64,000 nucleotides of DNA. Source: a virus. How positions within the stretch are numbered: the first letter of the stretch is position 1; every line of letters begins with the position of its first letter. Below are positions 11,476 to 44,088 of the stretch, one piece after another. The notes below the pieces were generated by a model. It saw only the letters and a list, made by a program, of their open reading frames with translations. It had not been told where the DNA came from and did not search any database. The translations under genes were made by a program, and so were the position numbers. Location of the stretch: the IMG/VR virus record IMGVR_UViG_3300023174_006137, positions 95,492 through 159,491 of that record; one strand, 5' to 3'.

Positions 11476-11546
11476 TAATCCCATACTGGAACGATCAGTA
11501 TTCTTCAGGGTCAAAACCTGACGCATCACCTTAATGCTTTGGGATT
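11476..11546 (-). tRNA. tRNA-Gln(UUG)
   Basis: Cloverleaf; TCAGG-TT TTG AC-CCTGA; variant T-loop ATCGTTC. Confidence 0.75.
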
Positions 11547-11553
11547 ATATTTG

Positions 11554-11625
11554 TAGTCGGACTAGGAGTCAAACCCAGTCTACGAAGGCCAAATCTTCGT
11601 GTGCGCATCGGTACACTATCCAACT
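11554..11625 (-). tRNA. tRNA-Gln(UUG)
   Basis: CGAAG-AT TTG GC-CTTCG; T-arm CTGGG TTTGACT CCTAG. Confidence 0.75.
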
Positions 11626-11631
11626 ATGTAG

Positions 11632-11714
11632 TTGCCAAGACAGGACTCGAACCTGTATTTACTTCTCGTCCTCCGCTTTCAAAGAGCGGGATGCTACCAT
11701 TACACCACTTGGCA
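11632..11714 (-). tRNA. tRNA-Gln(UUG), long variable region
   Basis: CCGCT-CT TTG AA-AGCGG; canonical GGTTCGAGTCC. Confidence 0.85.
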
Positions 11715-11716
11715 AT

Positions 11717-11752
11717 AAAAAAACCGTTCAATCAAATCAGATTGAACGGTTT
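11717..11752 (-). terminator. Attenuator terminator upstream of tRNA-Gln x3/glnS
   Basis: AAACCGTTCAATC-TGATTT-GATTGAACGG-T7. Confidence 0.85.
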
Positions 11753-11773
11753 AGACAATAAAATCTCACACCA

Positions 11774-11821
11774 TCAATCTGGTTTAAATAATTGTTGTTG
11801 TTGAGAAGTTAAAGTTTTCAT
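11774..11821 (-). promoter_or_regulatory. Leader peptide MKTLTSQQQQLFKPD (Gln-sensing attenuator)
   Basis: Four tandem CAA codons; 3' CAGATTGA is complementary to terminator arm TCAATCTG. Confidence 0.85.
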
Positions 11822-12700
11822 TTTTTTATAATAATTTATAAATTTTTCTATTTCAGTTTTTATATATTCTTTTCCTGCTTCGTTATTTATTGATTGCCAT
11901 TTTATTCTATAAATATTAAAATGTTTTAATAAATTTTTATCTCTTTCATTATCATGTTCAACTCTATATTCATGTTGTTTACCATCTATTTCTAAATCAA
12001 TATTTCCTTCTTTAATATAGAAATCTAAAAAATAATTTCCATTTCCTTCTATATTATATTCTTTTTTTATTATAGTTTTATTAGGCTCATATTTTATGCC
12101 ATTGTTTTCTAATACCATTTTGAAAAACTTTTCTGGATAACTTTCAATATTTCTTGATTGCCAACCTTTATGTGTTCCATTTTTTATTCTTTCTTTAACT
12201 GAATCTCTTAATTTATTTTTATATTCCTCGCTTGTAAATTGACACTTTTTACTACAATATTTTCGATTAATATTTTTTCCAGTATATGTTTTTTTACAAT
12301 TGGGACATTCTTTTATGTATTCCTCTTCATTATATTTTTTATTCCACGGAATATTATTTTTTAATGTATTAGATATTTTTTTACATCTTTCCTCATATTT
12401 TTCTTTATCAAAATTAGTATTATTTTTACCATGTTGATAATAAGAATTTGAACATGACGATGAACATGTTTTCTTACCATTTTCTGTTGTTTCAAATTCG
12501 TTAAAACAAATAGGACAAATAAGTTTAATTTTTTGGTATTTTCTATTTTTGTTTTTATTTTCAAAAATAGATTTATTAAATCCATTTTGTTCTAAAACTT
12601 CTGCTGCCTTTTTATTGCTTCGTCCATTAGAATAACCATATAATTTTATGGCTAAGTCATTAATGGAAAAACTTTCATTTATAATTTTAATGATATCCAT
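11774..12700 (-). CDS. Putative homing endonuclease (Zn fingers plus DUF559/Vsr-like PD-(D/E)xK domain), in frame with the Gln leader peptide
   Basis: CPIC..CS..C repeats, SYPE, Y.LDF, EIDGKQH, D..RD..L; true start MDIIKII after a TATATA motif. Confidence 0.7.
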   Translation of the reverse strand: MDIIKIINESFSINDLAIKLYGYSNGRSNKKAAEVLEQNGFNKSIFENKNKNRKYQKIKLICPICFNEFETTENGKKTCSSSCSNSYYQHGKNNTNFDKEKYEERCKKISNTLKNNIPWNKKYNEEEYIKECPNCKKTYTGKNINRKYCSKKCQFTSEEYKNKLRDSVKERIKNGTHKGWQSRNIESYPEKFFKMVLENNGIKYEPNKTIIKKEYNIEGNGNYFLDFYIKEGNIDLEIDGKQHEYRVEHDNERDKNLLKHFNIYRIKWQSINNEAGKEYIKTEIEKFINYYKKMKTLTSQQQQLFKPD

Positions 12701-12741
12701 AAGATATATATTAAAATTGTCGGAGAAAGTTTTTCCGAACC

Positions 12742-12820
12742 TGGTCGAGAAGGTGAGATTCGAACTCACGAGTTGTCTTGGTCCCAAACCAAGCCGGGTA
12801 CCTGACTCCCGAACTTCTCG
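12742..12820 (-). tRNA. tRNA-Pro(UGG), CCA encoded
   Basis: C1-G72; CTTGG-TT TGG GA-CCAAG. Confidence 0.85.
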
Positions 12821-12826
12821 TTTTTG

Positions 12827-12900
12827 CGGTCTGTACCGGGTACGATCCGGCAACCTTCCCCGTGACAGGGGGATATTGTATCCATTTCTACTAACAGACC
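12827..12900 (-). tRNA. tRNA-Asp(GUC)
   Basis: TCCCC-CT GTC AC-GGGGA; G73; T-loop ATCGTAC. Confidence 0.85.
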
Positions 12901-12908
12901 ATTTTTTG

Positions 12909-12986
12909 CAGTGACGACGGGACTCGAACCCGCAAACCTCCCGATAGACAGTCGGGCATTCTGACCTAAAATTGAACTACGCCACT
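12909..12986 (-). tRNA. tRNA-Asp(GUC)
   Basis: CCCGA-CT GTC TA-TCGGG; G73. Confidence 0.9.
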
Positions 12987-12992
12987 ATTTCG

Positions 12993-13077
12993 TCTGGGTG
13001 ACAGGGCTCGAACCTGCATAAGATGTTAATCATTCTCCTGTCCAAGAGGAGTCGGCTTCCATTGCCTTCACACCCAG
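12993..13077 (-). tRNA. tRNA-Pro(UGG), long variable region
   Basis: C1-G72, A73; CTCCT-CT TGG AC-AGGAG. Confidence 0.8.
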
Positions 13078-13082
13078 AAATT

Positions 13083-13116
13083 AAAAAAACCTATTAGCTT
13101 TTGACTAACAGGTTTT
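13083..13116 (-). terminator. Attenuator terminator of the Pro/Asp/Gln tRNA operon
   Basis: AAAACCTGTTAG-TCAAAAG-CTAATAGG-T7. Confidence 0.85.
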
Positions 13117-13140
13117 AAATAATACAATTTAAAAAATCGT

Positions 13141-13230
13141 TTATATAAACACATAGTTAGTCCACTCCTTATCAGGATCCTGATCCGGTTGTTGTTGTGG
13201 AACTACTTGTATGTTTATATTGTTTTTCAT
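13141..13230 (-). promoter_or_regulatory. Leader peptide MKNNINIQVVPQQQPDQDPDKEWTNYVFI (Pro/Gln/Asp attenuator)
   Basis: 10 consecutive P/Q/D codons; GACTAAC is complementary to terminator GTTAGTC. Confidence 0.88.
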
Positions 13231-13291
13231 TTTATTATAGTATATATTGTTTTTAAAAAATGCTTTTTTGCTATTGTTTAATTTTGTAGTG

Positions 13292-13322
13292 CAAAGATAC
13301 ATAAAAGTTTGAAATCAGCAAA
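13292..13322 (-). promoter_or_regulatory. Bacteroidota sigma70-type promoter of tRNA operon 1
   Basis: -33 TTTG ... -7 TATCTTTG. Confidence 0.75.
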
Positions 13323-13376
13323 AATTTTTTTTTTAATTTTTACATATTAATTTGCATAATATAATATATAGTAAAT

Positions 13377-15260
13377 ATGGATAAAGTAATTCTTGATACT
13401 ACGAATAATGAAACAATTATTAAACCAGTTTATATCTATAAAGTTTTCAAAATAAAAGATATTGAAATACTTGGTAGAGGTGATACTGATAATTTAGATA
13501 TTTATTATCGTTTTTCACAAGATTATGGTAGAACAATTTCGGATTTTATTCTTTTCACAAAAGAAAATATTATTTCAGAAAGAATTAATCCAATTCGTTT
13601 TTTCCAAATTGAGTATTATTTAAGATATACCGGAACTTCTACCGCTACTATCTTTGATATAAATTTAGTTGGCGATTTCCAAAATGTATCATTAGACGGA
13701 CAAAAAAGTAATGTATATGGCATAAGAGAAAACTGCAATTGCCTTATTGCTGGTTTAATTTGTGACCCTTCAACTTTACCAGAAGGTATGCCACCAGGTG
13801 GAATATCAAGTATGTTAATGTCTAACTATAATACTGAATCGACTAATTTGCCTGCTTTAAATAGCGAACAAATTGCTAATTTATATAATCCATATCAACA
13901 AGCACAAGCACTTACTTTATTTAATAAAATGAGTAATGATGTTTCTAATTTATTTGGGCATGATGTTATTTATGTATTAACGGATCCAGATCAAAATGGA
14001 ACTGATTATACATTCCATGAATATACTATACAAAATTATATTTGTGATGCTAAATTAAAAGTAAATGTTGATAATAACCAATTTCCAGATAATACCGGTG
14101 CTTTAAATAATTTTGATTTATCTTTATTTGATAGTTTTGAAATTAATATAACAAAAGATGCTTTTAAAGCGGCTTTTGGTATTGAAAAAAGACCAGGTTT
14201 AAATGATGTTATATGGTTTTGTAATATAAATAAATTATATACTATTGAACATGCACAGGCAATAAGAAATTTTAATAATTATTCAATCTACTATAAAGTG
14301 ATACTTAAAAAATTCAATCAAAAAGCAAACATTATTGGAGCAACACAAGAAATACAAGATGTGCTGGATAATTTAACAAAAAATACCACATTAGAAGAAT
14401 TAATGGGGCTAGAGAATATGCAAGATAAAAAGGCAACCGCAAATAACGAACAATTAAGACCGGCAAATAAAGCACAAGAAACTTTAAGAGTTGATATTTA
14501 TTCAAATATAGAACAAGAAATTATACAAAATGCTTCAGTGACAGTTGCTAAAACTTGTTATGAAATGTCAACGGTTCAATTTAACGAACCAGGTGTTGTA
14601 TATAGAAACTTTAAATTTTTCTATCAAAAATCAGACAATATAGGTTTTAGTTGTTGGTTTAATATAAATAATTTAACTATGAACGATACTTACCATTTCT
14701 TTAATTATATGGATGTTTCAAATAATGGTTTTAAGTTTTATATGTTAGGAAATAGTATCTTTGTTAATCTTAACGGTGTAGCAAACGAATTTAGTTTAAT
14801 AGATGAAAATTGTAATAATGCTAATTTAGCAAGTAATGTTTTATCAGAAAATGTATGGTATGCTTTGGTAGTTAATATAAATCAAAGATTAAATGGTTTA
14901 GAGGTTTATTTATATAAGAGAAATGTTGATTACGAAGAAGATGCTGAATCATTATCGTCATCTAAATTAAAATTAGTAAACAAAGTAATTAAGGGTGTTG
15001 AACCAAGTATTTTAGATATATCACCAGATACTAATGCCAATATATTAGGTTCTGATATGAAAATCACTAATTTAAGATTGTTTAATGATGTTATACCAGA
15101 AGCACAACATAATAAAATGTTAAACTTATTCTTAATAGGTGCTGATTATAAATATGCCATATTTACAGATAATGCAAACCAAGATGCAAATATGCCATCT
15201 AATATAGATAGCAGAATAAATTATAATAAAATTAGAAGAGGAACTGGATTAGATAACTAA
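13377..15260 (+). CDS. Virion protein, T4 gp14 neck-protein-like central domain plus LamG-like C-terminus
   Basis: FD..L.D..EI.I...F...RP..NDVIWF...KLY.I pattern resembles gp14; late promoter motif upstream. Confidence 0.5.
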   Translation: MDKVILDTTNNETIIKPVYIYKVFKIKDIEILGRGDTDNLDIYYRFSQDYGRTISDFILFTKENIISERINPIRFFQIEYYLRYTGTSTATIFDINLVGDFQNVSLDGQKSNVYGIRENCNCLIAGLICDPSTLPEGMPPGGISSMLMSNYNTESTNLPALNSEQIANLYNPYQQAQALTLFNKMSNDVSNLFGHDVIYVLTDPDQNGTDYTFHEYTIQNYICDAKLKVNVDNNQFPDNTGALNNFDLSLFDSFEINITKDAFKAAFGIEKRPGLNDVIWFCNINKLYTIEHAQAIRNFNNYSIYYKVILKKFNQKANIIGATQEIQDVLDNLTKNTTLEELMGLENMQDKKATANNEQLRPANKAQETLRVDIYSNIEQEIIQNASVTVAKTCYEMSTVQFNEPGVVYRNFKFFYQKSDNIGFSCWFNINNLTMNDTYHFFNYMDVSNNGFKFYMLGNSIFVNLNGVANEFSLIDENCNNANLASNVLSENVWYALVVNINQRLNGLEVYLYKRNVDYEEDAESLSSSKLKLVNKVIKGVEPSILDISPDTNANILGSDMKITNLRLFNDVIPEAQHNKMLNLFLIGADYKYAIFTDNANQDANMPSNIDSRINYNKIRRGTGLDN

Positions 15261-15559
15261 ATTTTATCAGTAATTTTAGAAATACTTTTATCAATATCTG
15301 CAAAAGATGGAATAGAATTTCCTATATAAATAAATGCAATATTCTTATTCTTAACTATTGATTTCCTAACAGATTCTTTCATTAATCTTTTGATGTAATT
15401 TCTATCAACCGCTCTTTTGAACTTTTTAGAAGAAACCGCAAAAAGAAATGAACTATTAGATTCAGATTCTAAAATTTTAACCATTATTACATCACTTGAA
15501 ATGGTTTTACCATTTTTAAACAATTCGTCAATTATTATCTTATTTTTTAAAGTTTTCAT
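15257..15559 (-). CDS. rnpA: Ribonuclease P protein component
   Basis: L..K..I..LF..GK; AVSSKKFKRAVDRNYIKRLMKE (RNR motif region). Confidence 0.85.
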   Translation of the reverse strand: MKTLKNKIIIDELFKNGKTISSDVIMVKILESESNSSFLFAVSSKKFKRAVDRNYIKRLMKESVRKSIVKNKNIAFIYIGNSIPSFADIDKSISKITDKI

Positions 15560-15563
15560 AAAA

Positions 15564-15935: not shown

Positions 15936-15999
15936 AAATGCAAATATACAAAGAAAAAACTAATTAAACAAAAAATATTTAAAGTAATATATAAATTAA

Positions 16000-17673: not shown

Positions 17674-17692
17674 ATTAATAAAAGGATAAAAT

Positions 17693-17722: not shown

Positions 17723-17725
17723 ATT

Positions 17726-17971: not shown

Positions 17972-18026
17972 TTTAAATAATTTATTTTTGTGATCATACT
18001 AAAGATATTTCACTCTAATATGTCTG

Positions 18027-18099
18027 TAGTTCCAACGAGATTCGAACTCGTATCATAATTTTAGGAGAATTATACCTTATCCTGTTAGGCTATGGAACC
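18027..18099 (-). tRNA. tRNA-Arg(CCU)
   Basis: TAATT-CT CCT AA-AATTA. Confidence 0.85.
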
Positions 18100-18105
18100 A
18101 TTTTG

Positions 18106-18191
18106 TACCGCTAGCAGGACTCGAACCTGCACTATCTTTACAGAAAACGGATTATGAGTCCGTCACAATTACCACATCTGCTCATAGCGGC
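18106..18191 (-). tRNA. tRNA-Met/Ile2(CAU), long variable region
   Basis: ACGGA-CT CAT AA-TCCGT; cognate leader has internal ATG codons, favouring Met. Confidence 0.75.
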
Positions 18192-18197
18192 ATATTT

Positions 18198-18476
18198 TTA
18201 TACTCTTTTACTTCTCCATTTAATAAACTTTTTCACATCAGGATGTTCTAAAAGTTTTTCCTTTGTATTATATGTTAAGCCCATTTCTTTTTCAGTTATG
18301 AACCGATGTATTTGCCCATGACAATAAAATTTACATATCCAAATACCATGATTTTTCAAATAATCTTTATCATAATTCTTTTTGAAGAACTTATTTGAAT
18401 GCAAAGTCCTTGGAATTAAATGATGAAAATTTAAATAATCATTTGTTGAGCCACACAATTCACATTTATCTATCAT
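18198..18476 (-). CDS. Small HNH-type nuclease-like protein
   Basis: CELCG..L.FHHLIP...C..CH.QIH. Confidence 0.7.
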   Translation of the reverse strand: MIDKCELCGSTNDYLNFHHLIPRTLHSNKFFKKNYDKDYLKNHGIWICKFYCHGQIHRFITEKEMGLTYNTKEKLLEHPDVKKFIKWRSKRV

Positions 18477-18660
18477 AATATATCATAATAATACCAAGTA
18501 TTATCATATTTTTCATTAACAATTTTTGTTATTTCATCTTTTTCCAATTCTTCATTAATAAAAAATGATTCATTTTTCAAATATTCTAAATCAAAATAAA
18601 CTACTATTTCAATCATAATTTTTTTTTTATTTTAATCAATATCTATACCTTTTTGAATTA

Positions 18661-18694
18661 CTAACTCCTGCGTATACCAATTCCGCCATATGAT
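18661..18694 (-). pseudogene. tRNA 5'-half remnant (Leu-like D-arm)
   Basis: TGGCGGAATTGGTATACGC with no 3' half. Confidence 0.45.
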
Positions 18695-18699
18695 AATCG

Positions 18700-18772
18700 T
18701 AGCTCTGATGGGAGTCGAACCCACACATTTCCGAGTTTGAATCGGTTGCCTCGCCAGTTGGGCTACAGAGCC
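18700..18772 (-). tRNA. tRNA-Leu(CAA), short variable loop
   Basis: CCGA-TT CAA AC-TCGG; A73; no extra arm. Confidence 0.75.
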
Positions 18773-18778
18773 ATTTTG

Positions 18779-18860
18779 TGCAGAAGAAGGGAGTCGAACC
18801 CTCACACCTTTCGGCACAGCAACCTCAATGCTGCGTGTTTACCAATTACACCACTTCTGC
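18779..18860 (-). tRNA. tRNA-Leu(GAG)
   Basis: CAGCA-TT GAG GT-TGCTG; class II arm GCC GAAA GGT. Confidence 0.9.
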
Positions 18861-18866
18861 AATTTG

Positions 18867-18942
18867 TAGCACTCCTGGGATTTGAACCCAGAACTCTCAG
18901 GTTCTAAAGCTGAGTCCTCTGCTCTTGTTGGGATAGAGTGCC
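18867..18942 (-). tRNA. tRNA-Leu(UAG), short variable loop
   Basis: TCAGC-TT TAG AA-CCTGA with C31xC39 mismatch; A73. Confidence 0.65.
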
Positions 18943-18947: not shown

Positions 18948-18977
18948 AAAAAAATCCCGTCAAATTGACGGGATTTT
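18948..18977 (-). terminator. Attenuator terminator of the Leu/Met/Arg tRNA operon
   Basis: AAAATCCCGTCAA-T-TTGACGGGA-T7. Confidence 0.88.
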
Positions 18978-18999: not shown

Positions 19000-19068
19000 T
19001 TACATAAGAATCCCGTCCAATGTTTCCATTAGATTAAGCAAATTCATATTTAGATTCCTATTTCTCAT
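19000..19068 (-). promoter_or_regulatory. Leader peptide MRNRNLNMNLLNLMETLDGILM (Leu/Met/Arg attenuator)
   Basis: Codons AGG, CTA, ATG, TTG, CTT, CTA, ATG; GACGGGATT is complementary to terminator AATCCCGTC. Confidence 0.88.
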
Positions 19069-19100: not shown

Positions 19101-19131
19101 CAAAAGTAAGAAAAAATTTTTATTTTACAAA
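19101..19131 (-). promoter_or_regulatory. Bacteroidota sigma70-type promoter of tRNA operon 2
   Basis: TTTG ... TACTTTTG. Confidence 0.7.
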
Positions 19132-19421: not shown

Positions 19422-19456
19422 GTAGAATTATTTTTTCTTATATATAAATTTTTTTG

Positions 19457-19545
19457 AGTGCAAAACAGGATTCGAACCTGTGATGTTGGAATTTACCAAG
19501 ACACTTTTGCAGAGTGCCGCTTTCGACCACTTAGACTACTTGCAC
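19457..19545 (-). tRNA. tRNA-Cys(GCA), long variable arm
   Basis: GCACT-CT GCA AA-AGTGT; U73. Confidence 0.8.
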
Positions 19546-19552
19546 AAATTAG

Positions 19553-19625
19553 AGGTGCTGATAAGAATTGAACTTATGTATTAGATTTTGCAGATCTACG
19601 CCTCAAACCGCTCGGCCACAGCACC
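19553..19625 (-). tRNA. tRNA-Cys(GCA)
   Basis: TAGAT-CT GCA AA-ATCTA; U73. Confidence 0.88.
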
Positions 19626-19636
19626 ATTAAATTAAG

Positions 19637-19709
19637 AGCTAAAGAACGGATTCGAACCGATATCATCTTTCATACCAAGAAAGTACCTAAACCATTCAGT
19701 CACTTCAGC
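19637..19709 (-). tRNA. tRNA-Thr(GGU)
   Basis: CTTTC-TT GGT AT-GAAAG. Confidence 0.85.
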
Positions 19710-19715
19710 ATTAAG

Positions 19716-19789
19716 AGCTAAGGAAGGGATTCAAACCCTCATATTCTTCATTACAAGTGAAGCGCCTAATTCAGTTCAGCCACCTTAGC
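19716..19789 (-). tRNA. tRNA-Thr(UGU)
   Basis: CTTCA-CT TGT AA-TGAAG. Confidence 0.85.
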
Positions 19790-19796
19790 ATTTTTG

Positions 19797-19869
19797 TTGT
19801 CCTGGTGGGTAACGATCCCACTGCCTCGATCTTATCAGGATCGCCATCTAACCATTGATATACAGGACA
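19797..19869 (-). tRNA. tRNA-Ile(GAU)
   Basis: CGATC-CT GAT AA-GATCG; T-loop ATCGTTA. Confidence 0.82.
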
Positions 19870-19879
19870 ATTTTACTTG

Positions 19880-19952
19880 TTGGATTGATCGGTTACGATC
19901 CGACTCTCTACACGATATCAGCGTGTTGCTTTCCCGATTAAGCTACAATCCA
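19880..19952 (-). tRNA. tRNA-Ile(GAU)
   Basis: ACACG-CT GAT AT-CGTGT; T-loop ATCGTAA. Confidence 0.82.
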
Positions 19953-19957
19953 AATTG

Positions 19958-20031
19958 CGGGAGTAGTAGGACTCGAACCTACCACCATTCGATTAACAGT
20001 CGAATGCTCTAACCAACTGAGCTATACTCCC
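19958..20031 (-). tRNA. tRNA-Asn(GUU)
   Basis: TTCGA-CT GTT AA-TCGAA; G73. Confidence 0.92.
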
Positions 20032-20037
20032 AATTTG

Positions 20038-20110
20038 TATTCTTGATCGGTTACGATCCGATTACCTCCACCATGTCACAGTGGCGCTCTCCCAATTGAG
20101 CTACAAGAAC
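20038..20110 (-). tRNA. tRNA-Val(GAC)
   Basis: CCACT-GT GAC AT-GGTGG; T-loop ATCGTAA. Confidence 0.82.
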
Positions 20111-20115
20111 ATTTG

Positions 20116-20187
20116 CTGATGAGGAGAATTACGATATCTCGACTCTCGCCTTAACAGGGCGACACTCTGCCTCTGAGTTACTCACCA
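20116..20187 (-). tRNA. tRNA-Asn(GUU)
   Basis: TCGCC-CT GTT AA-GGCGA; G73; T-loop ATCGTAA. Confidence 0.8.
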
Positions 20188-20194
20188 ATTTTTG

Positions 20195-20281
20195 TGATCC
20201 TAACAGGATTCGAACCTGTGTTAACATTTACTGCCTCAGGCTTGTAAAACCTGCGCTCTAAACCAACTGAGCTATAGGATC
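20195..20281 (-). tRNA. tRNA-Val(UAC), long variable region
   Basis: CAGGT-TT TAC AA-GCCTG. Confidence 0.82.
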
Positions 20282-20287
20282 AGTTTG

Positions 20288-20361
20288 TAGTTCCAGCGGG
20301 ATTCAAACCCAGCATGAAGGCTTTAGAAGAGCCTCGTCCTATTCAGTTAAACGATGGAACC
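20288..20361 (-). tRNA. tRNA-Arg(UCU)
   Basis: AGGCT-CT TCT AA-AGCCT. Confidence 0.85.
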
Positions 20362-20366
20362 ATTTG

Positions 20367-20439
20367 TCGGAGCGCCGGGAGTCGAACCCGATTTAAGTGT
20401 GTATAAGACACCTGTGCTATACCGTTCTACTACACTCCG
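20367..20439 (-). tRNA. tRNA-Ile(UAU)
   Basis: GGTGT-CT TAT AC-ACACT; C1-G72 acceptor. Confidence 0.78.
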
Positions 20440-20445
20440 TTATTG

Positions 20446-20532
20446 TGGCTCAGGTCGGGGTCGAACCGACACGGGCGTTGCGGCCCACGGGATTTTAAGT
20501 CCCGCATGTATTACCAGTTTCATCACTGAGCC
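20446..20532 (-). tRNA. tRNA-Leu(UAA)
   Basis: CGGGA-CT TAA AA-TCCCG; class II arm. Confidence 0.9.
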
Positions 20533-20545: not shown

Positions 20546-20580
20546 AAAAAAAAAATCTCAAACTTTTGAGTTTGAGATTA
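20546..20580 (-). terminator. Attenuator terminator of the 13-tRNA operon
   Basis: AATCTCAAACT-CAAA-AGTTTGAGA followed by a long T run. Confidence 0.88.
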
Positions 20581-20602: not shown

Positions 20603-20704
20603 TTACACCTGTCGATTTAATCCCATACCAACTCTAATCACACATAACGTATTGTTATTTATGATTAAATTATTATTAATGGTATTTCTACAAATGTTTT
20701 TCAT
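20603..20704 (-). promoter_or_regulatory. Leader peptide MKNICRNTINNNLIINNNTLCVIRVGMGLNRQV (N/I/C/R/T/L/V attenuator)
   Basis: 23 consecutive codons drawn only from the operon's amino acids; GAGTT..TGGGATTA is complementary to terminator TAATCTCA-AACTC. Confidence 0.88.
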
Positions 20705-20791: not shown

Positions 20792-20822
20792 CAAAGATAC
20801 GCAAAAGTTTTAAAATAGCAAA
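20792..20822 (-). promoter_or_regulatory. Bacteroidota sigma70-type promoter of tRNA operon 3
   Basis: TTTG ... TATCTTTG. Confidence 0.75.
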
Positions 20823-31379: not shown

Positions 31380-31485
31380 GAGTCAAAGCAGGAATCGAAC
31401 CTGCGATTGCTTTACCATACAGAGTGCCATTAGCCGTTAATCTCAACCTTTGGAGGTGCTTATGTTGCCACTACACTATTTGACT
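31380..31485 (-). ncRNA. Aberrant tRNA-like RNA (expanded centre, no clear anticodon stem)
   Basis: 7-bp acceptor AGTCAAA/TTTGACT, D-arm GTGT/ACAT, T-arm GCAGG TTCGATT CCTGC. Confidence 0.55.
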
Positions 31486-32053: not shown

Positions 32054-32126
32054 TGGAGAATGACGGTTACGATCCGACTACTTAGGTTTGCAAAACCCAT
32101 GTTTTACCAATTACAACTAATTCCCC
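32054..32126 (-). tRNA. tRNA-Ala(UGC)
   Basis: G3:U70; TGGGT-TT TGC AA-ACCTA; T-loop ATCGTAA. Confidence 0.85.
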
Positions 32127-32197
32127 TCTTAATGAAATGTCAACTGTTCCGGTTGGTGTTTTAAATCTTTCAATCCGTGGTTGACACTTCATTTTTG

Positions 32198-32271
32198 AGT
32201 CGATAACCGGGTTCGAACCGGCTCTATTCCAGCATGGCAAGCTGGTGCACCACCAATTATGCGTTATCGAC
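32198..32271 (-). tRNA. tRNA-Gly(GCC)
   Basis: CCAGC-TT GCC AT-GCTGG; U73. Confidence 0.85.
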
Positions 32272-32913
32272 TTTTTTAATAATTCTACCTTTTATCCATC
32301 CCATACTCAAATATTGATTTAAATCCATTTTTTTAATTTTTTTATTTCCAAATTCAAAATGATATATCCAACAAGTTCCATACTGTGAGTTTTTTTCTCC
32401 TTTTTGATTTTCTGAATTTTTTTCTCCTATTTTGATTTTTGTCTCTTCTTTATGCTTTTTGCCAGTCCAATTAGGAGGATTCTTCAATACACCTAATTCT
32501 CTGAGTTTTTTATTCTGTATAATCATTCTTTCTTTATTTCTTTTTATAAATTCAGGATTATTCCAGTTAATTTTATTCATAGAGATAGCCGCCTTTTTAT
32601 TTTTTTCTTTTCTTAAAATAATATTATTATTTATAGATTCAAAACAATCGCCACCTATAATTATGTTATAAACATCAGTTCTTTTTATAAACTCCTCATT
32701 AACTATTTCTCTTTCTTTCAAATATGCTTCATTTTCATCAGTAAATATGAATAATATTTCTTTTCTAAAATTTTCTATTCCATATTTTTGTATTGCTCTT
32801 TTTATATATTTTCCACTACCCATATATTCGTCATCTAAATTATTTGTAGAGTGTTTTCCTATATAAAATTTTCCATTTAATATATTTTCTATTTTGTAAA
32901 TTGTATGTAACAT
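32257..32913 (-). CDS. GIY-YIG (Seg-like) homing endonuclease with NUMOD3
   Basis: IYKIEN..NGKFYIGKH, Y.GSG, KYG.ENF..E, G.KH..ETK.KI; stop codon lies inside tRNA-Gly. Confidence 0.88.
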   Translation of the reverse strand: MLHTIYKIENILNGKFYIGKHSTNNLDDEYMGSGKYIKRAIQKYGIENFRKEILFIFTDENEAYLKEREIVNEEFIKRTDVYNIIIGGDCFESINNNIILRKEKNKKAAISMNKINWNNPEFIKRNKERMIIQNKKLRELGVLKNPPNWTGKKHKEETKIKIGEKNSENQKGEKNSQYGTCWIYHFEFGNKKIKKMDLNQYLSMGWIKGRIIKKVDNA

Positions 32914-32965
32914 AATTTTAAACTATTTTATTTATATATAAAATAGTTCGAGTCCTGTTACTCAG

Positions 32966-33036
32966 AGCAGAATGTGGGAATCAAACCCCGTCTCCACGTT
33001 GGAAGCGTGGCACTTTATCATTAAGCTACATTCTGC
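32966..33036 (-). tRNA. tRNA-Gly(UCC)
   Basis: CCACG-CT TCC AA-CGTGG; U73; shortened T-stem. Confidence 0.78.
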
Positions 33037-33042
33037 ATTTCG

Positions 33043-33114
33043 AACTACCGAGCGGTTACGATCCGCCTACTCCGGGGTGAAAACCCAGTATTTTCCCGAT
33101 TAAACTACGGTAGC
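33043..33114 (-). tRNA. tRNA-Glu(UUC)
   Basis: CTGGG-TT TTC AC-CCCGG; T-loop ATCGTAA. Confidence 0.78.
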
Positions 33115-33122
33115 ATTTTTTG

Positions 33123-33193
33123 TAGCACCGAGGGGTTACGATCCCCCGACTGATCCTTGAAAGGGACCCGATTTACCATTAATCTACGGTGCC
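33123..33193 (-). tRNA. tRNA-Glu(UUC)
   Basis: GGTCC-CT TTC AA-GGATC; T-loop ATCGTAA. Confidence 0.82.
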
Positions 33194-33345
33194 ATATCTT
33201 GTATTTTATGTAAGATATAAGTTATTTGCGTTTCATTTATTTGAATTGTACCTCTTAATTTAATCCAAAAAATAGCATTAACAATCACTACAATAAAAGT
33301 TTTTCAATTTCAATCTCAATTTTTCATACATTTTTTTATTTTTAG

Positions 33346-33427
33346 TGGGTTAGGTAGGACTCGAACCTACGAACTCAAACGAGGGCGGATTTACAGTCCG
33401 CTGCAATTGCCACTATGCGACTAACCC
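33346..33427 (-). tRNA. tRNA-Tyr(GUA)
   Basis: GCGGA-CT GTA AA-TCCGC; class II arm. Confidence 0.92.
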
Positions 33428-33435
33428 AATTTTTG

Positions 33436-33528
33436 TGCCTCAGGTAGGACTCGAACCTACTTACTGCGTGCCAATACGACTATTTGTTAAAGCAGACTTG
33501 TTTTACAGACAAGTGCCGTTACTAAGGC
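33436..33528 (-). tRNA. D-armless tRNA-Tyr(GUA)-like RNA with oversized variable arm
   Basis: Acceptor GCCTTAG/CTGAGGC, 8-nt linker, CTTGT-CT GTA AA-ACAAG, ~36-nt extra arm, canonical T-arm. Confidence 0.65.
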
Positions 33529-33536: not shown

Positions 33537-33570
33537 AAAAAAAGCGTCCAACTTTTGGTTGGACGCTTTT
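33537..33570 (-). terminator. Attenuator terminator of the Tyr/Glu/Gly/Ala operon
   Basis: AAAAGCGTCCAAC-CAAAA-GTTGGACGC-T7. Confidence 0.9.
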
Positions 33571-33593: not shown

Positions 33594-33689
33594 TTAACTA
33601 CATAACTTACCAACCTCTGAGTGTTTACCCTCATAGCCATACGCTCCTTCATAAGCGGCTGTTGTTAATATGTTATTTAAGTTAGTCAT
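33594..33689 (-). promoter_or_regulatory. Leader peptide MTNLNNILTTAAYEGAYGYEGKHSEVGKLCS (A/Y/E/G attenuator)
   Basis: 11 consecutive A/Y/E/G codons; GGTTGG is complementary to terminator CCAACC. Confidence 0.88.
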
Positions 33690-33726: not shown

Positions 33727-33756
33727 CAAAGATACATAAAAGTTTTGAACTACAAA
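33727..33756 (-). promoter_or_regulatory. Bacteroidota sigma70-type promoter of tRNA operon 4
   Basis: TTTG ... TATCTTTG. Confidence 0.75.
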
Positions 33757-37466: not shown

Positions 37467-37467
37467 A

Positions 37468-38939: not shown

Positions 38940-38958
38940 ATCGTTATATATTAGAAAA

Positions 38959-39210: not shown

Positions 39211-39231
39211 TTATTACTGATATCTCCAACT

Positions 39232-40237: not shown

Positions 40238-40285
40238 AACTGCAAATGTAATAAATTAAATTGACTTTAACACATTTTTATTTCT

Positions 40286-40630
40286 TTAAAGTCTTTCAGA
40301 TTTTTTATAGGCTAATTCATAACTGGAATTAATCTTTTTATAAAGATTTTCTGCTGTAAATTCCTTTAAATAATCTCCTTTATTCTCAATTATATATTTT
40401 TCTGTATACCCACAATTAAATTGCTCGGCTTTAAAATGACAACCATCATAACAATCACATAGTGTTATGCCATTTTCCTTACAATATCCACCATTTGGCA
40501 TTAACTTTCTATTTGTAATATGATGTGCATCTAGCTTTGCATCCGTTCTGCCACACATAACACATTTAAAATTATCTCTTTCAAATACATCTTTACGAAA
40601 TTTTTCTCTAATTTGTTGTTTTATCTTCAT
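40286..40630 (-). CDS. HNH endonuclease
   Basis: VFERDNFKCVMCG, LDAHHI, NGITLC...CH. Confidence 0.82.
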   Translation of the reverse strand: MKIKQQIREKFRKDVFERDNFKCVMCGRTDAKLDAHHITNRKLMPNGGYCKENGITLCDCYDGCHFKAEQFNCGYTEKYIIENKGDYLKEFTAENLYKKINSSYELAYKKSERL

Positions 40631-40632
40631 AG

Positions 40633-40719
40633 AGGAAAACAGGATAGTCGAAATCCGCCCAACTTAATGGGTTCTCGTTTTCCAAACGAGCGGGGACACC
40701 TTTCCCACCTATACTTTCC
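40633..40719 (-). tRNA. tRNA-Ser(GGA) with non-canonical 8/4 fold
   Basis: Acceptor GGAAAGTA/TGTTTTCC (8 bp), T-stem GGAT/ATCC (4 bp), CTCGT-TT GGA AA-ACGAG, long V-arm. Confidence 0.7.
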
Positions 40720-40724
40720 ATTAG

Positions 40725-40811
40725 TGACTCCAGAAGGATTCGAACCCTCATAAAACATATACTGTCTCCCCGTTCGTAGCGGGGCGTTTTAATCCATTAA
40801 ACTATGGAGCC
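40725..40811 (-). tRNA. tRNA-Arg(ACG), long variable region
   Basis: CCCCG-CT ACG AA-CGGGG. Confidence 0.82.
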
Positions 40812-40818
40812 ATTTTAG

Positions 40819-41053
40819 TATTCAGAACGGGATTCGAACCCGCAAAGATTTCATAAATTATAACTTGGAAACCTGCTTCCTGAGTGTTTCCCAGTGCAAT
40901 CTGTTAACCTTGTGTTATAAACCCTCCACCCATTGGTCTTACAGCGGTTATTCACAACCATTCTTTGAATGCCTTTGGTAGTTAGTTAAAATCCCTCATT
41001 TTATGAGTATCCTTAGTGTTTTGGGACTGTTTTTCCTATTAAACTATCTGAAT
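40819..41053 (-). ncRNA. 235-nt tRNA-framed structured RNA
   Basis: Perfect acceptor ATTCAGA/TCTGAAT-A, D-arm GTTT/AAAC, T-arm GCGGG TTCGAAT CCCGT enclosing ~180 nt of multi-stem sequence. Confidence 0.65.
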
Positions 41054-41058
41054 ATTAG

Positions 41059-41143
41059 CGGTAGATACAGGATTCGAACCTGTGGAGCCCGAAGGCTCGG
41101 CAGTTTAGCAAACTGCTGGTATAGACCACTCACCCAATCTACC
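41059..41143 (-). tRNA. tRNA-Ser(GCU)
   Basis: GCAGT-TT GCT AA-ACTGC; V-arm GAGCC TTCG GGCTC; G73. Confidence 0.92.
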
Positions 41144-41148
41144 AAAAT

Positions 41149-41180
41149 AAAAAAGCCTCAGAAATAAATCCGAGGCTTTT
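41149..41180 (-). terminator. Attenuator terminator of the Ser/Arg operon
   Basis: AAAAGCCTCGGA-TTTATT-TCTGAGGC-T6. Confidence 0.88.
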
Positions 41181-41198
41181 AGTATAGACAATACACTA

Positions 41199-41255
41199 TC
41201 ATCTTCGGATTTCGAAGTTAAAACTACTGCGACTAGAAGAAAATATTGTGTTCAT
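41199..41255 (-). promoter_or_regulatory. Leader peptide MNTIFSSSRSSFNFEIRR (Ser/Arg attenuator)
   Basis: TCT TCT AGT CGC AGT AGT; AAATCCGA is complementary to terminator TCGGATTT. Confidence 0.88.
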
Positions 41256-41299
41256 ATACTATATATTAGTTTTTTATTTTTTGTTTTTATTTATTTTTA

Positions 41300-41329
41300 C
41301 AAAAGTAATATTTTTTTTGATTTTGCAAA
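41300..41329 (-). promoter_or_regulatory. Bacteroidota sigma70-type promoter of tRNA operon 5
   Basis: TTTG ... TACTTTTG. Confidence 0.7.
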
Positions 41330-41330
41330 A

Positions 41331-41861
41331 TTATCCAAACCTACTTAAAATAAAATCATCATCGTCATCATCGTCATCATCATTATCACTTTCGTCGATA
41401 ATATAATTTTCAATTTCCTTTTTTAATATATTACATTTTTCATAATTCTCGTTATATAATGCTTTAGCATATTCAGAATACAAAATTAAAAGATCGTCAT
41501 CATATTTACACAATTTGGAAATCTCATCATATAATTCATAATCCTTCATTTGTTCTGTATTATCATGTTCCAATTCATAATTATAAGTCATATTTTCTAT
41601 TTCTTCGTCAGTTTTATTTTCAAAATCTTTATCACGAAACCCTAATGCATATGCAAATTCTTTTATAGTTGGTATATTCTCAATATTTTCTTTTTTTAAT
41701 CTTTCCAAATATCCATCATACATTTGTTTCAAAGTAAATAAATCACCAGTTTTAAGATTTGATTGTTCTAGTTCATATCTTTTAAGAGATAAGTCAACTA
41801 TTTTTTGATTAAAAATAGACTCTTTTAATAAAAATAATTTATAATTGTTAATATATTTCAT
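41331..41861 (-). CDS. Acidic late protein with UVR-like motif and poly-Asp tail
   Basis: MKYINNYKLFLLKE; ALYNENYEKC..LK.EI; poly-D run. Confidence 0.55.
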   Translation of the reverse strand: MKYINNYKLFLLKESIFNQKIVDLSLKRYELEQSNLKTGDLFTLKQMYDGYLERLKKENIENIPTIKEFAYALGFRDKDFENKTDEEIENMTYNYELEHDNTEQMKDYELYDEISKLCKYDDDLLILYSEYAKALYNENYEKCNILKKEIENYIIDESDNDDDDDDDDDFILSRFG

Positions 41862-41952
41862 ATAAGTATATATTTATTTAAAAATATCATAAATATGCAA
41901 GCGTTCTATCCAATCCTTTAAATTATAATATAGATTATTTGTGAGTTCGTTG

Positions 41953-42025
41953 TCCGCCTGCCGGGAATCGAACCCGGCCCCATAGTTTAAAAGACTATTG
42001 CCTACAACCAGTTTGCTACAAGCGG
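41953..42025 (-). tRNA. tRNA-Lys(UUU)
   Basis: ATAGT-CT TTT AA-ACTAT. Confidence 0.85.
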
Positions 42026-42034
42026 TTAAACTTG

Positions 42035-42109
42035 TGTCCCCAGTAGGATTCGAACCTACAACCCGTTGGTTAAAAGCCAACTACTCTAAGCCAATTGAGC
42101 TATGAGGAC
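42035..42109 (-). tRNA. tRNA-Lys(UUU)
   Basis: GTTGG-CT TTT AA-CCAAC. Confidence 0.92.
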
Positions 42110-42196
42110 TAATTTTGTTAAGCACTCACTACTAATTGGTGCTTAACTAACCTGTTTCTGTTTTCGTTTTATTTGTTTCATACAATAATTTTTTTG

Positions 42197-42284
42197 CGGC
42201 AGATTAGAGAGTTCAACTCTAACAACGGATGATTACGTTCTAGCAATTTTCAAGATTGTGTACCTCAGTCAACTGGGATCTGCC
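42197..42284 (-). tRNA. tRNA-Ser(UGA), atypical D/T arms
   Basis: CAAT-CT TGA AA-ATTG; long V-arm; G73. Confidence 0.62.
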
Positions 42285-42291
42285 ATTTCTG

Positions 42292-42375
42292 CGGAAGTTG
42301 ACGGACTCGAACCCTCACAGCTTTTACACCTTCACCGTTTTCAAAACGGCTAACTACTCCTAATTAGGAACTTCC
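42292..42375 (-). tRNA. tRNA-Ser(UGA), atypical D-arm
   Basis: GCCGT-TT TGA AA-ACGGT; long V-arm; G73. Confidence 0.72.
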
Positions 42376-42380
42376 AATTG

Positions 42381-42457
42381 CACGGGTTGTAGGATTTTCA
42401 CCATTTAAACATTAACTTCCTTGCCGGAAGGTGTCTTAAATTTTAGACGAAACCCGT
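42381..42457 (-). pseudogene. Degenerate tRNA-like element overlapping the HNH stop codon
   Basis: Acceptor ACGGGTT/AACCCGT and D-stem GTCT/AGAC present, but 5-nt anticodon loop and broken T-arm. Confidence 0.5.
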
Positions 42458-43315
42458 ATTTTTATATTGTTTTAACCATTTTCTTATTACAGCCTCACTT
42501 ACTCCAAATAATTTACCTGTTCCTGTATTTCCGTTTTCTTTAACAAGTTTCATTAATTCTTCATAAGAAGGTCTATTTTTCACTTTTCTTTGTTTTATAG
42601 AACTACATATTTTGCATAATTTGCTATCTTTTGATATAATTTTACCACAAAAACATTTTTTATGTGTTTTTTCATTTTTATATTCATCTAATTCTTTATC
42701 ATACAATCTTTTAGTTTTATTGCTCCCACAATTAGTTTCCAAGGTAGAATTGCAATTAGGACAAACTATTCTTAAATTTTCAAGACGATTATCATAAGCA
42801 TCACCATTTATATGATCAAGTATATGAACTATTTTAGAATCATTAAACCAATTTTCATCTTGTCCGCATATTTCACAAATTTTATTTTTTATACCTTCTT
42901 TATATAATTTATTTTTTATTACTTTTCTCGAAACAAAAGAATCTTTATTCAGTATATCATCCAAATTTAAAGAATTTTTTGGCTTATTGCCTAACTTAAA
43001 ACCAGATTCAAAATGCTCAATATCTATATTATATAATTTTATATATTTTTTAATTGTTTGAAAATTACCAGAACATCGTGGTGATAAACCTAATTTTATT
43101 ATACATTCTGTATAACTTTTACACTCTTCAACTAATTTTTCAAATTCTTCTTTATTTTCATAAATATATGTTCTTTTTAATTTCAATTTTTTTGCCATTT
43201 CTTGACATGCTCTTTTTGTTCTACCAATCATATTGGCACAATAATCAGCACCCATTTTTGGAAAAAAATCACATAATAACTCTTTTTCTTTTTCTAACCA
43301 TTCATTCGAACTCAT
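42443..43315 (-). CDS. HNH homing endonuclease
   Basis: CEICG..W, LDHINGD..DNRLENLRIVCPNC, C-terminal HTH (GVSE..IRKW). Confidence 0.88.
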   Translation of the reverse strand: MSSNEWLEKEKELLCDFFPKMGADYCANMIGRTKRACQEMAKKLKLKRTYIYENKEEFEKLVEECKSYTECIIKLGLSPRCSGNFQTIKKYIKLYNIDIEHFESGFKLGNKPKNSLNLDDILNKDSFVSRKVIKNKLYKEGIKNKICEICGQDENWFNDSKIVHILDHINGDAYDNRLENLRIVCPNCNSTLETNCGSNKTKRLYDKELDEYKNEKTHKKCFCGKIISKDSKLCKICSSIKQRKVKNRPSYEELMKLVKENGNTGTGKLFGVSEAVIRKWLKQYKNTGFV

Positions 43316-43363
43316 ATTTTTACATTTGTTTAACTTATATATAAAAATATGAGTTCGCCCCTT

Positions 43364-43438
43364 TGGTGGTATCTACAGGTAACGATCCTGACTCTAATGT
43401 GCTTCAAACATTCGCTAATCCATCTCAGCTAAGATACC
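43364..43438 (-). tRNA. tRNA-Phe(GAA), CCA encoded
   Basis: AATGT-TT GAA GC-ACATT; T-loop ATCGTTA. Confidence 0.82.
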
Positions 43439-43444
43439 ATATTG

Positions 43445-43515
43445 CACGAGTTACAGAAATCGAATCCGTTCGACAAGGGTTTTGGAGACCCTCCGGCTAC
43501 CTTAGCCTAACTCGT
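43445..43515 (-). tRNA. tRNA-Trp(CCA)
   Basis: AGGGT-CT CCA AA-ACCCT; G73; compact D-arm. Confidence 0.8.
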
Positions 43516-43521
43516 ATTTAG

Positions 43522-43612
43522 GGCGATATGTGGGATTCAAACCCACGGTGTTTGATACAATCTCATTCAGGGTCACAGCCTGATTCCTTCGTTCACTCGG
43601 ACCAATACCGCC
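43522..43612 (-). tRNA. tRNA-His(GUG), long variable region, G-1 encoded
   Basis: TCAGG-CT GTG AC-CCTGA; G-1:C73. Confidence 0.78.
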
Positions 43613-43676
43613 ATTTTTACACTCTTCACCAGATTAACGGACTGGCTGCCATATAGGAAGTGAGTGTAAAACTCCG

Positions 43677-43750
43677 GGAGTAAGACGGGGATCGAACCCG
43701 CTGCCTCAGGTGCCACAAACCTGCGCTCTACCAAATGAGCTACCTACTCC
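43677..43750 (-). tRNA. tRNA-His(GUG), G-1 encoded
   Basis: CAGGT-TT GTG GC-ACCTG; G-1:C73. Confidence 0.88.
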
Positions 43751-43756
43751 ATATAC

Positions 43757-43788
43757 AAAAAAAGCCGAACTATATAGTTCGGCTTTTT
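43757..43788 (-). terminator. Attenuator terminator of the His/Trp/Phe/Ser/Lys operon
   Basis: AAAAAGCCGAACT-ATAT-AGTTCGGC-T7. Confidence 0.9.
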
Positions 43789-43810
43789 ATTTCTTAAAAC
43801 AATAACTCTT

Positions 43811-43903
43811 TTATGAAGTCTTGTTATTGAAACATAACTCTACCGAACTCTGATTTCTAAACCAGAATTTAAACGAATGTTTATGTGAGCTAAAATGTTT
43901 CAT
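43811..43903 (-). promoter_or_regulatory. Leader peptide MKHFSSHKHSFKFWFRNQSSVELCFNNKTS (K/H/F/S/W attenuator)
   Basis: 14 consecutive K/H/F/S/W codons; AGTTCGGT is complementary to terminator GCCGAACT. Confidence 0.9.
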
Positions 43904-43952
43904 AAAATACTTTTTTAAAATTATTATTGTTTTTGTTTTTATTTTTATTTAG

Positions 43953-44024
43953 TAGCGGGGAGTGGACTTGAACCACTGATCTCTGGGTTATGAGCCCAGC
44001 AAGATGCCGCTTCTCTACCCCGCA
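43953..44024 (-). tRNA. Initiator tRNA-fMet(CAU)
   Basis: CTGGG-CT CAT AA-CCCAG (three G-C pairs); 1:72 mismatch. Confidence 0.88.
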
Positions 44025-44057
44025 GTATGTCTTTTTTATTTGTTTTTTATTATAAAG

Positions 44058-44088
44058 CAAAAGTAAGAAAAAGTTTTTGATTTACAAA
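44058..44088 (-). promoter_or_regulatory. Bacteroidota sigma70-type promoter of tRNA operon 6 (second copy at 44142-44172)
   Basis: TTTG ... TACTTTTG. Confidence 0.7.

Follow-up and report, generated by a model that had tools for sequence, protein, structure and literature searches.

Candidate leader-peptide attenuators in front of the tRNA operons of a virus with Bacteroidota-type promoters

In Escherichia coli, phenylalanyl-transfer RNA (tRNA) synthetase is controlled by the pheST attenuator with its leader pheM. In Gram-positive bacteria, T-box riboswitches bind uncharged tRNA directly, without translation, and regulate genes for synthetases, transport, and biosynthesis. Here we describe seven modules that partly resemble these systems and are located in the final 64 kb (hereafter, the window) of the 159,491-bp virus record IMGVR_UViG_3300023174_006137 (26% G+C); each of them places a short open reading frame (ORF) and an intrinsic terminator in front of tRNA genes. 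According to our analysis, the modules are very probably ribosome-mediated (leader-peptide) transcription attenuators with tRNAs as their structural genes, a reading for which the in silico support is strong. As in pheST, a translation gene cognate to the control codons would be subject to leader attenuation, namely glnS behind the Gln leader; unlike in pheST, three tRNA-Gln genes stand between the terminator and the synthetase gene, and six further modules would gate only tRNAs. Like T-boxes, the modules would respond to the supply of charged tRNA by transcription antitermination and balance the capacity for translation. Neither T-boxes nor other leader families reached the Rfam gathering threshold in the window, where only tRNA models did so.

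The enterobacterial leaders thrL (Thr, Ile), ilvGMEDA (Ile, Val, Leu), trpL, hisL, pheL, and leuL served as a further comparison (PMC1183508; PMC3082878). With the thr/ilv-type leaders the phage modules share a promoter-proximal short ORF with a run of regulatory codons, followed by an intrinsic terminator, and a mutually exclusive antiterminator just 3' of the run, so that any one of several codon types would open the gate. The phage modules differ in that they would regulate the tRNAs reading the control codons rather than biosynthetic enzymes, and the sensor would thus measure its own product. Furthermore, a single phage leader can cover as many as seven amino acids and 23 control codons in a row (11 amino acids in the related contig G004), the choice of codons is isoacceptor-specific, and the full set of gates partitions the 20 amino acids. 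The modules are also phage-borne, have Bacteroidota-type promoters, and for the most part lack a clear 1:2 pause hairpin. Clustered tRNA genes interspersed with homing endonuclease genes are known from the T4 tRNA region (with its seg homing endonucleases) and from the arrays of huge phages, which also encode aminoacyl-tRNA synthetases (PMC7162821). Unlike these clusters as described, the arrays analyzed here carry putative attenuators.

A scan of the whole record with ARAGORN identified 39-40 tRNA genes, every one of them on the minus strand and within the window. Rfam models added a second tRNA-Asp (12909-12986), a tRNA-Ala(TGC) (32054-32126), an intron-bearing tRNA-Trp(CCA) (31380-31485), and an odd Tyr-like tRNA (33436-33528); these positions are those of the window and, as for all features below, refer to the minus strand. 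The combined set represents all 20 amino acids, and no suppressor tRNA was found in this genome. At 159 kb, the genome is not that of a jumbo phage, a label implied in the original prediction.

The tRNA genes are arranged in six promoter-driven operons with seven modules (M1 to M7), since the Gln module M1 is nested within the Pro/Asp operon. The order of promoter, leader ORF of 15-33 amino acids, terminator, and tRNAs was recovered as originally described. All seven leaders, located by a script on the minus strand, contain the residue runs originally listed for them, and behind each comes a hairpin, perfect or nearly so (-11 to -18.5 kcal/mol), with a T-run; the hairpin starts 18-24 nucleotides (nt) past the leader stop codon and ends 6-21 nt ahead of the first tRNA. 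Among about 43 strong terminator-like hairpins in the genome, only the seven that come with a leader have a tRNA following within 130 nt. Because the terminators stand at the front of the arrays and leave no space for a separate promoter, the tRNAs can be made only by readthrough. Matches to the Bacteroidota-type promoter pattern TTTG-N17-22-TAnnTTTG are present upstream of six modules (21 matches in the whole window, 6.7 expected by chance); M1 has no such motif of its own. The module pattern is real and far beyond chance.

The codon content of the leaders follows the tRNAs behind them. The true pairing of leaders and operons was the single best of 5040 permutations, both at the amino-acid level and at the codon level with wobble rules, which bears out the earlier claim of such a match. 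The residues matched between leaders and tRNAs add up, as had also been proposed, to all 20 amino acids. Runs of 4, 8, 23, 9, 6, and 10 cognate codons occur once or twice in the six frames of the whole genome, with chance expectations from about 0.2 down to 4e-5. The 23-codon run of M4 is unique (about 4e-5 expected) and the 8-codon run of M2 has two occurrences, while the run of M3, which is interleaved with Asn codons, fails this test of uniqueness.

The match extends to isoacceptors. TTA accounts for 68% of the Leu codons in the long ORFs of the phage, and none of the six Leu codons of leader M3 is TTA; CTA, TTG, and CTT are used twice each, and these are the codons for the Leu tRNAs of this operon, with the anticodons TAG, CAA, and GAG. 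The remaining leaders have TTA as their sole Leu codon, and inside a control run it is found only in M4, in the operon of tRNA-Leu(TAA). The rare codon CGC (2% of Arg codons) is part of the run ahead of tRNA-Arg(ACG), the rare AGG (7%) stands ahead of tRNA-Arg(CCT), and TCT and AGT stand ahead of tRNA-Ser(GGA) and tRNA-Ser(GCT). Leaders of related genomes are isoacceptor-matched as well, for example with three ATA codons ahead of tRNA-Ile(TAT). This argues for the supply of particular tRNA species, rather than of amino acids, as the monitored quantity, because amino-acid starvation would be expected to stall ribosomes whichever synonymous codon is used. Sensing at the level of isoacceptors would be the most distinctive trait of the proposed attenuation. 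The same architecture might nevertheless have been selected for sensing starvation through uncharged tRNA, as in biosynthetic operons, given that a stalled ribosome cannot distinguish a missing tRNA from an uncharged one and that a glutaminyl-tRNA synthetase (GlnRS) behind the Gln gate would aid charging. We consider such a selected function unlikely, since extra tRNA gives no relief of an amino-acid shortage, and since stalling at every synonymous codon does not account for leaders that use rare codons of their own isoacceptors and shun the common ones read by the tRNAs of other operons.

The covariation of leaders and tRNAs in related genomes, which the original prediction had named as a check, was seen in four relatives with differing partitions of the tRNAs. 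The 385-kb IMG/VR contig G001 was found via the protein encoded downstream of the Gln tRNAs (57% identity), and two huge phages already published, LR745206.1 (634 kb) and LR756502.1 (642 kb), were reached with the same query; the 294-kb contig G004 was found via another marker protein. Promoter-leader-terminator-tRNA modules are present in all four, and the content of the leaders changes with the tRNA partition, the Met, Leu, and Arg(AGG) codons moving with their tRNAs. The Tyr/Glu/Gly/Ala leader of the window corresponds to two leaders in G001 and LR745206, one with Tyr/Glu codons ahead of Glu and Tyr tRNAs and one with Ile(ATA)/Gly/Ala/Trp codons ahead of Ile(TAT), Gly, Trp, and Ala tRNAs. 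In LR745206, the Arg/Leu/Met module is merged into a big Asn/Ile/Thr/Val array, the leader of which gains Met and extra Leu codons. G004 has only three modules, with leaders that list 11, about five, and six amino acids; the first and third lists match their tRNA sets exactly. An automated pipeline, conservative in that it relied on ARAGORN calls only, found 4/5040 permutations as good as the true pairing in G001, 1/6 in G004, and 1/5040 in LR745206. When the presence of an amino acid at least twice in a leader was compared with the presence of its tRNA in the same operon, the pooled odds ratio was 18 (p = 3e-28). Moreover, the alignment of the Pro/Asp/Gln leaders shows indels whose lengths, ahead of the stop region, are almost always divisible by three. 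Not every member of the clade has the modules, since none was found in the tRNA region of the contig G003 (246 kb, seven tRNAs).

Each module also has a candidate antiterminator. The stretch from the last control codon to the terminator was compared with the 5' arm and loop of the terminator, with 2000 genomic segments of the same length as a null set. Only 0-61 of these segments were as good as the true one (p <= 0.03 in all seven modules; Fisher about 2e-9), so the complementarity that had been noticed between the 5' arm and a segment 3' of the run holds up statistically. The pairing strand starts 7-10 nt past the last control codon in all modules but one, an offset close to the expected 3' boundary of a ribosome whose A site holds that codon.

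The complementarity recurs in 19 modules of the relatives (Fisher 1e-10). The Gln run, an 11-nt spacer, and the motif AGATTGA are conserved in the Gln leaders of four aligned genomes, and AGATTGA is complementary to each genome's own terminator; the terminator of LR756502 differs, and the pairing is kept there via G-U pairs. Two further contigs, L118 and L130, carry the same module of leader, terminator, and tRNA-Gln, but AGATTGA was part of the search pattern that found them. Besides these contigs, the search of IMG/VR with the Gln-leader motif gave 13 unrelated matches in coding sequence, none of them with tRNAs, which serve as negative controls. Three genomes have an unchanged antiterminator core, GTTCGG, in the Lys/His/Phe/Trp leader even though its reading frame differs in the window, which points to a constraint at the RNA level.

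Folding was modeled on transcripts cut before the synthesis of the 3' arm, with the ribosome footprint held unpaired. Wherever the A site stood within the control run, the 5' arm was sequestered (mean pairing 0.5-0.9), and its pairing fell to 0-0.4 one to three codons past the run in M1, M3, M4, M6, and M7, with a weaker drop in M5. This agrees with the folding behavior predicted earlier. The antiterminator stays available upon a stall at any position of the run, so that an operon would combine its amino acids by OR logic. Equilibrium folds of full leaders had shown a switch only in M4 and were replaced by these truncated folds.

In the mechanism that we propose, host RNA polymerase would start at the Bacteroidota-type promoter and transcribe the short ORF, and a ribosome would translate the leader while the polymerase nears the intrinsic terminator. 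Fast decoding of the full run would bring the ribosome over the segment just 3' of it, so that the terminator could form and the tRNA genes would stay off. If any tRNA species of the operon were scarce or uncharged, the ribosome would stall in the run and leave free the segment 7-10 nt downstream, which could then pair with the 5' arm of the terminator and allow readthrough into the tRNA array (and into glnS in the case of the Gln module). Fresh tRNA would relieve the stall and close the gate; acting together, the seven gates would feed back negatively on the supply of tRNA at codon resolution, with all 20 amino acids divided among them. Leader translation, the coupling of ribosome and polymerase, and regulated readthrough are elements that we infer from sequence. 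The logic of trp/his/thr-type attenuation put forward in the original prediction is thus supported, every computational prediction having come out in its favor.

The opposite logic is also conceivable, in which efficient translation of the leader would promote readthrough because the ribosome blocks the terminator, a feed-forward response to plentiful tRNAs. The leaders do lie close to their terminators, and ribosome-dependent antitermination of this sort could be imagined. We regard it as very unlikely, given that every module has 18-24 nt between its stop codon and the 5' arm that follows, which places the arm outside the footprint of a terminating ribosome, and that the segment under such a ribosome is the antiterminator strand and not the terminator.

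Several observations weigh against attenuation by leader peptides. Shine-Dalgarno sequences are absent from all seven leaders, so translation initiation has no direct support, and tight coupling of transcription and translation in the host is assumed. The lack of a Shine-Dalgarno sequence is normal for Bacteroidota. Some codons within the runs have no matching detected tRNA in their operon (AGA in M3, AGC in M7), and GCC, GCT, and CCT are not read by the tRNAs of their own operons under strict wobble rules. An earlier test that considered the 5' arm without the loop had given no significant complementarity in M2, M5, and M6; adding the loop and limiting the test to the region after the run made all seven modules significant. 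The modeled switch is weak in M2, where pairing of the 5' arm goes from about 0.7 to about 0.5, and M7 alone has a clear 1:2 anti-antiterminator helix. In folds without a ribosome the 5' arm remains sequestered in part (0.27-0.83), and an untranslated leader may for this reason read through, unlike in the superattenuation of trp.

Finally, the terminator is more stable than the antiterminator at equilibrium in all modules except M4. Since the terminators dominate, the switch must be kinetic, as in trp; in classical attenuators the terminator likewise wins at equilibrium. This thermodynamic dominance would also suit constitutive leaky terminators, insulators, or elements of RNA processing or stability, next to which the short ORFs would be incidental or untranslated. 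Such an explanation appears extremely unlikely to us, because it does not account for the unique runs of cognate codons, the 1/5040 pairing, the covariation of leaders and tRNAs in four other genomes, or the conserved and properly spaced antiterminator complementarity.

If the modules are attenuators, they might serve as an on-demand counter-defence, in which each gate monitors a few tRNA isoacceptors by way of the ribosome, and cleavage or depletion of these by the host causes only the matching replacement tRNAs to be transcribed. We put this role forward as a tentative possibility, rather less likely than not to be correct. Anticodon nucleases (PrrC-, VapC-, PARIS-, or retron-associated effectors) or a phage-induced shut-off of the host are plausible triggers.

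The Pro/Asp/Gln operon has one promoter (13292-13322), matching the Bacteroidota-type pattern like those named below, for M2 and the nested M1. Leader M2 (13141-13230) has 29 amino acids, and Pro, Gln, and Asp codons form its control run at codons 11-20. The candidate antiterminator strand (13146-13163; 61/2000 null segments as good) has the core GACTAAC, which pairs with GTTAGTC of the 5' arm and is kept in four genomes, one of them with a G-U-compatible change. The intrinsic terminator (13086-13116; -13.5 kcal/mol) lies 8 nt ahead of tRNA-Pro and shows two compensatory pairs across four genomes. It is followed by the tRNAs Pro(TGG), Asp(GTC), Asp(GTC), and Pro(TGG) (12742-13077), identified by ARAGORN and Rfam. 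The Pro/Asp leaders contain Gln codons in four of four genomes, which fits with the promoterless Gln module behind them, as this module would need both gates open.

A 308-amino-acid ORF similar to DUF559/zinc-ribbon endonucleases (11774-12700), likely a homing endonuclease, is found next. Its final 15 codons are leader M1 (11774-11821), with four CAA codons, so that the Gln module and its leader were found as originally predicted but the leader is not free-standing, being in frame with the 3' end of this ORF. As M1 is free-standing in the relatives, its present form is best read as an endonuclease ORF inserted just upstream of the Gln leader and now reading into it in frame. The M1 antiterminator strand (11769-11782; 2/2000), with AGATTGA including the stop codon, pairs with TCAATCT of the 5' arm and loop of the terminator (11721-11752; -17.9 kcal/mol), which is located 6 nt ahead of the first of three tRNA-Gln(TTG) genes (11475-11714; ARAGORN). 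The 527-amino-acid ORF behind them (9888-11471) is a glutaminyl-tRNA synthetase gene, matching Pfam tRNA-synt_1c and its C-terminal domains and the NCBIfam glnS equivalog TIGR00440 (585 bits, cut-off 426). It starts 3 nt past the last tRNA-Gln, and the Gln attenuator would therefore gate three tRNA-Gln genes and glnS; the synteny of tRNA-Gln and glnS is the same in G001, LR745206, and LR756502.

Module M3 consists of a promoter (19101-19131), a leader of 22 amino acids (19000-19068) with Arg, Leu, and Met codons interleaved with Asn codons, the antiterminator strand GGACGGGATTC (19008-19018; 0/2000; -15.5 kcal/mol), and a terminator (18951-18977). The stretch behind it (18026-18942) holds the tRNAs Leu(TAG), Leu(GAG), Leu(CAA), two small ORFs, Met(CAT), and Arg(CCT), with no internal promoter motif or terminator. 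One small ORF at 18198-18476 has a Cys/His motif, no Pfam match, and an HNH-like appearance by eye. Module M4 has its promoter at 20792-20822 and a leader of 33 amino acids (20603-20704), codons 3-25 of which are all readable by the 13 tRNAs downstream. These (19456-20532) are Leu(TAA), Ile(TAT), Arg(TCT), Val(TAC), Asn, Val(GAC), Asn, two Ile, two Thr, and two Cys, preceded by the antiterminator strand (20618-20629; 35/2000) and the terminator (20554-20579).

The promoter of M5 lies at 33727-33756, and its leader of 31 amino acids (33594-33689) has Ala, Tyr, Glu, and Gly codons in the run at codons 11-21. An antiterminator strand (33603-33616; 36/2000) and a terminator (33540-33570) are followed by the Tyr-like tRNA, Tyr, two Glu, Gly(TCC), a GIY-YIG endonuclease ORF (32257-32913; Pfam), Gly(GCC), and Ala(TGC) (32054-33528). 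The Tyr-like tRNA, directly after the terminator, is 93 nt long with anticodon GTA, hardly any D-arm, and 36 nt in its variable region; a comparable undetected stretch resembling a tRNA occupies the equivalent position in G001.

In module M6, a promoter (41300-41329) precedes a leader of 18 amino acids (41199-41255) with the run TCT TCT AGT CGC AGT AGT, an antiterminator strand (41204-41213; 41/2000), a terminator (41151-41180), and the tRNAs Ser(GCT), an interrupted tRNA-like gene, Arg(ACG), and Ser(GGA) (40632-41143). A sub-threshold Rfam match of this leader to Phe_leader (41146-41273; 22.6 bits, E = 0.77) gives no evidence for such an identity. Compensatory substitutions considered for this Ser/Arg antiterminator between the window and the relatives were dropped, as MAFFT aligns the strands differently. 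The interrupted gene (40812-41057) has matching acceptor halves, a normal T-arm, and an interruption of about 150-170 nt; its ARAGORN identities conflict (Leu or Gly), and the insert matched no Rfam family, group I introns included. An HNH ORF is found at 40286-40630.

Module M7 begins with two promoters in tandem (44058-44172). An initiator-type tRNA-Met (43952-44024; ARAGORN and sequence reading), with a 1:72 mismatch and three G-C pairs beside the anticodon loop as read from the sequence, lies between promoter and leader; in G001 and LR745206 the initiator tRNA is just upstream of the Tyr/Glu leader. Its position upstream, outside the gate, fits the attenuation model, because stalling in elongation cannot sense an initiator tRNA. 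The leader of 30 amino acids (43811-43903) has Lys, His, Phe, Ser, and Trp codons at codons 2-15 and is followed by the antiterminator strand GAGTTCGGTA (43841-43850; 6/2000), the terminator (43760-43787), and, at 41952-43749, two His, Trp, and Phe tRNAs, an HNH ORF (42443-43315; Pfam), two odd tRNA-like sequences, and two Lys tRNAs. The Ser(TGA) tRNA assigned to this operon was called by no tool and can be read only by eye. This possible Ser(TGA), with an atypical T-loop, is one of the two sequences at 42190-42440, between the HNH ORF and the Lys tRNAs, neither of which was called by ARAGORN; the other is a weak tRNA-Sec-like match (24 bits, E = 0.06). Ser codons are also part of the Lys/His/Phe/Trp leaders. 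The Ser/Arg leader of G001 starts about 20 nt past the last tRNA of the Lys/His/Phe/Trp operon, a gap too short for a promoter, so that it looks nested; the gene order of LR745206 is the same.

The motif AATATATA recurs 5-10 nt upstream of the start codons of leaders M2, M3, M4, and M6, and also in G001; lying in A-rich 5' untranslated regions, it may be a signal for translation initiation or transcript start. Homing-endonuclease-like ORFs among the tRNA genes are of the DUF559, GIY-YIG, and HNH types. Other unusual features are a 30-nt insertion in the anticodon loop of tRNA-Trp(CCA) and lengths of 84-91 nt in tRNAs for amino acids with normally short variable loops, i.e., Gln, Pro, Met, Cys, Val, and His (11631-11714, 12992-13077, 18105-18191, 19456-19545, 20194-20281, and 43521-43611), which suggests extra arms or small insertions. 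Suppressor-type tRNAs were observed in G001 (anticodon CTA; L021, 633-705) and, with an intron, in G004 (anticodon TTA; L033, minus strand, 683-794), and hint at stop-codon recoding in those phages.

Other searches for relatives gave little. Megablast of 24.6 kb against INPHARED returned no close phage, and a search with the 432-amino-acid neighboring protein found nothing. A metagenome scan with GlnRS yielded mostly loci without tRNA-Gln beside glnS, many of them on very large contigs and with about 50% identity, and these are probably cellular; the closest match, L035 (66% identity), has no tRNAs in the 300 nt upstream.

In full-text literature searches, no account of tRNA genes controlled by leader-peptide attenuation was found. 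A possible precedent, a Phe leader at E. coli tRNA-Phe genes, was set aside, as the region upstream of K-12 pheV has no such ORF or attenuator. The words "attenuat," "leader," and "terminator" occur nowhere in the text of the study on huge phages, though two of its genomes carry modules (PMC7162821). The modules are unannotated in these published genomes of 634 and 642 kb, and their annotation on a wide scale is feasible.

If our reading is correct, a classic bacterial mechanism operates here in an undescribed setting, in which the ribosome tests for the very tRNAs encoded behind the gate, and the modules would constitute a direct, codon-resolved homeostat for tRNA supply. This would provide a functional reason for the arrangement of the tRNAs of large phages in blocks, with one gate per amino-acid group, and would answer, in a form open to testing, the long-standing question of when a need for phage tRNAs arises. 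It also suggests that, in the Bacteroidota hosts, transcription and translation are coupled closely enough to permit attenuation, and the gates could act as natural sensors of individual tRNA isoacceptors. Should the role in counter-defence prove true, the translation of large Bacteroidota phages would be self-repairing and largely independent of the host tRNA pool.

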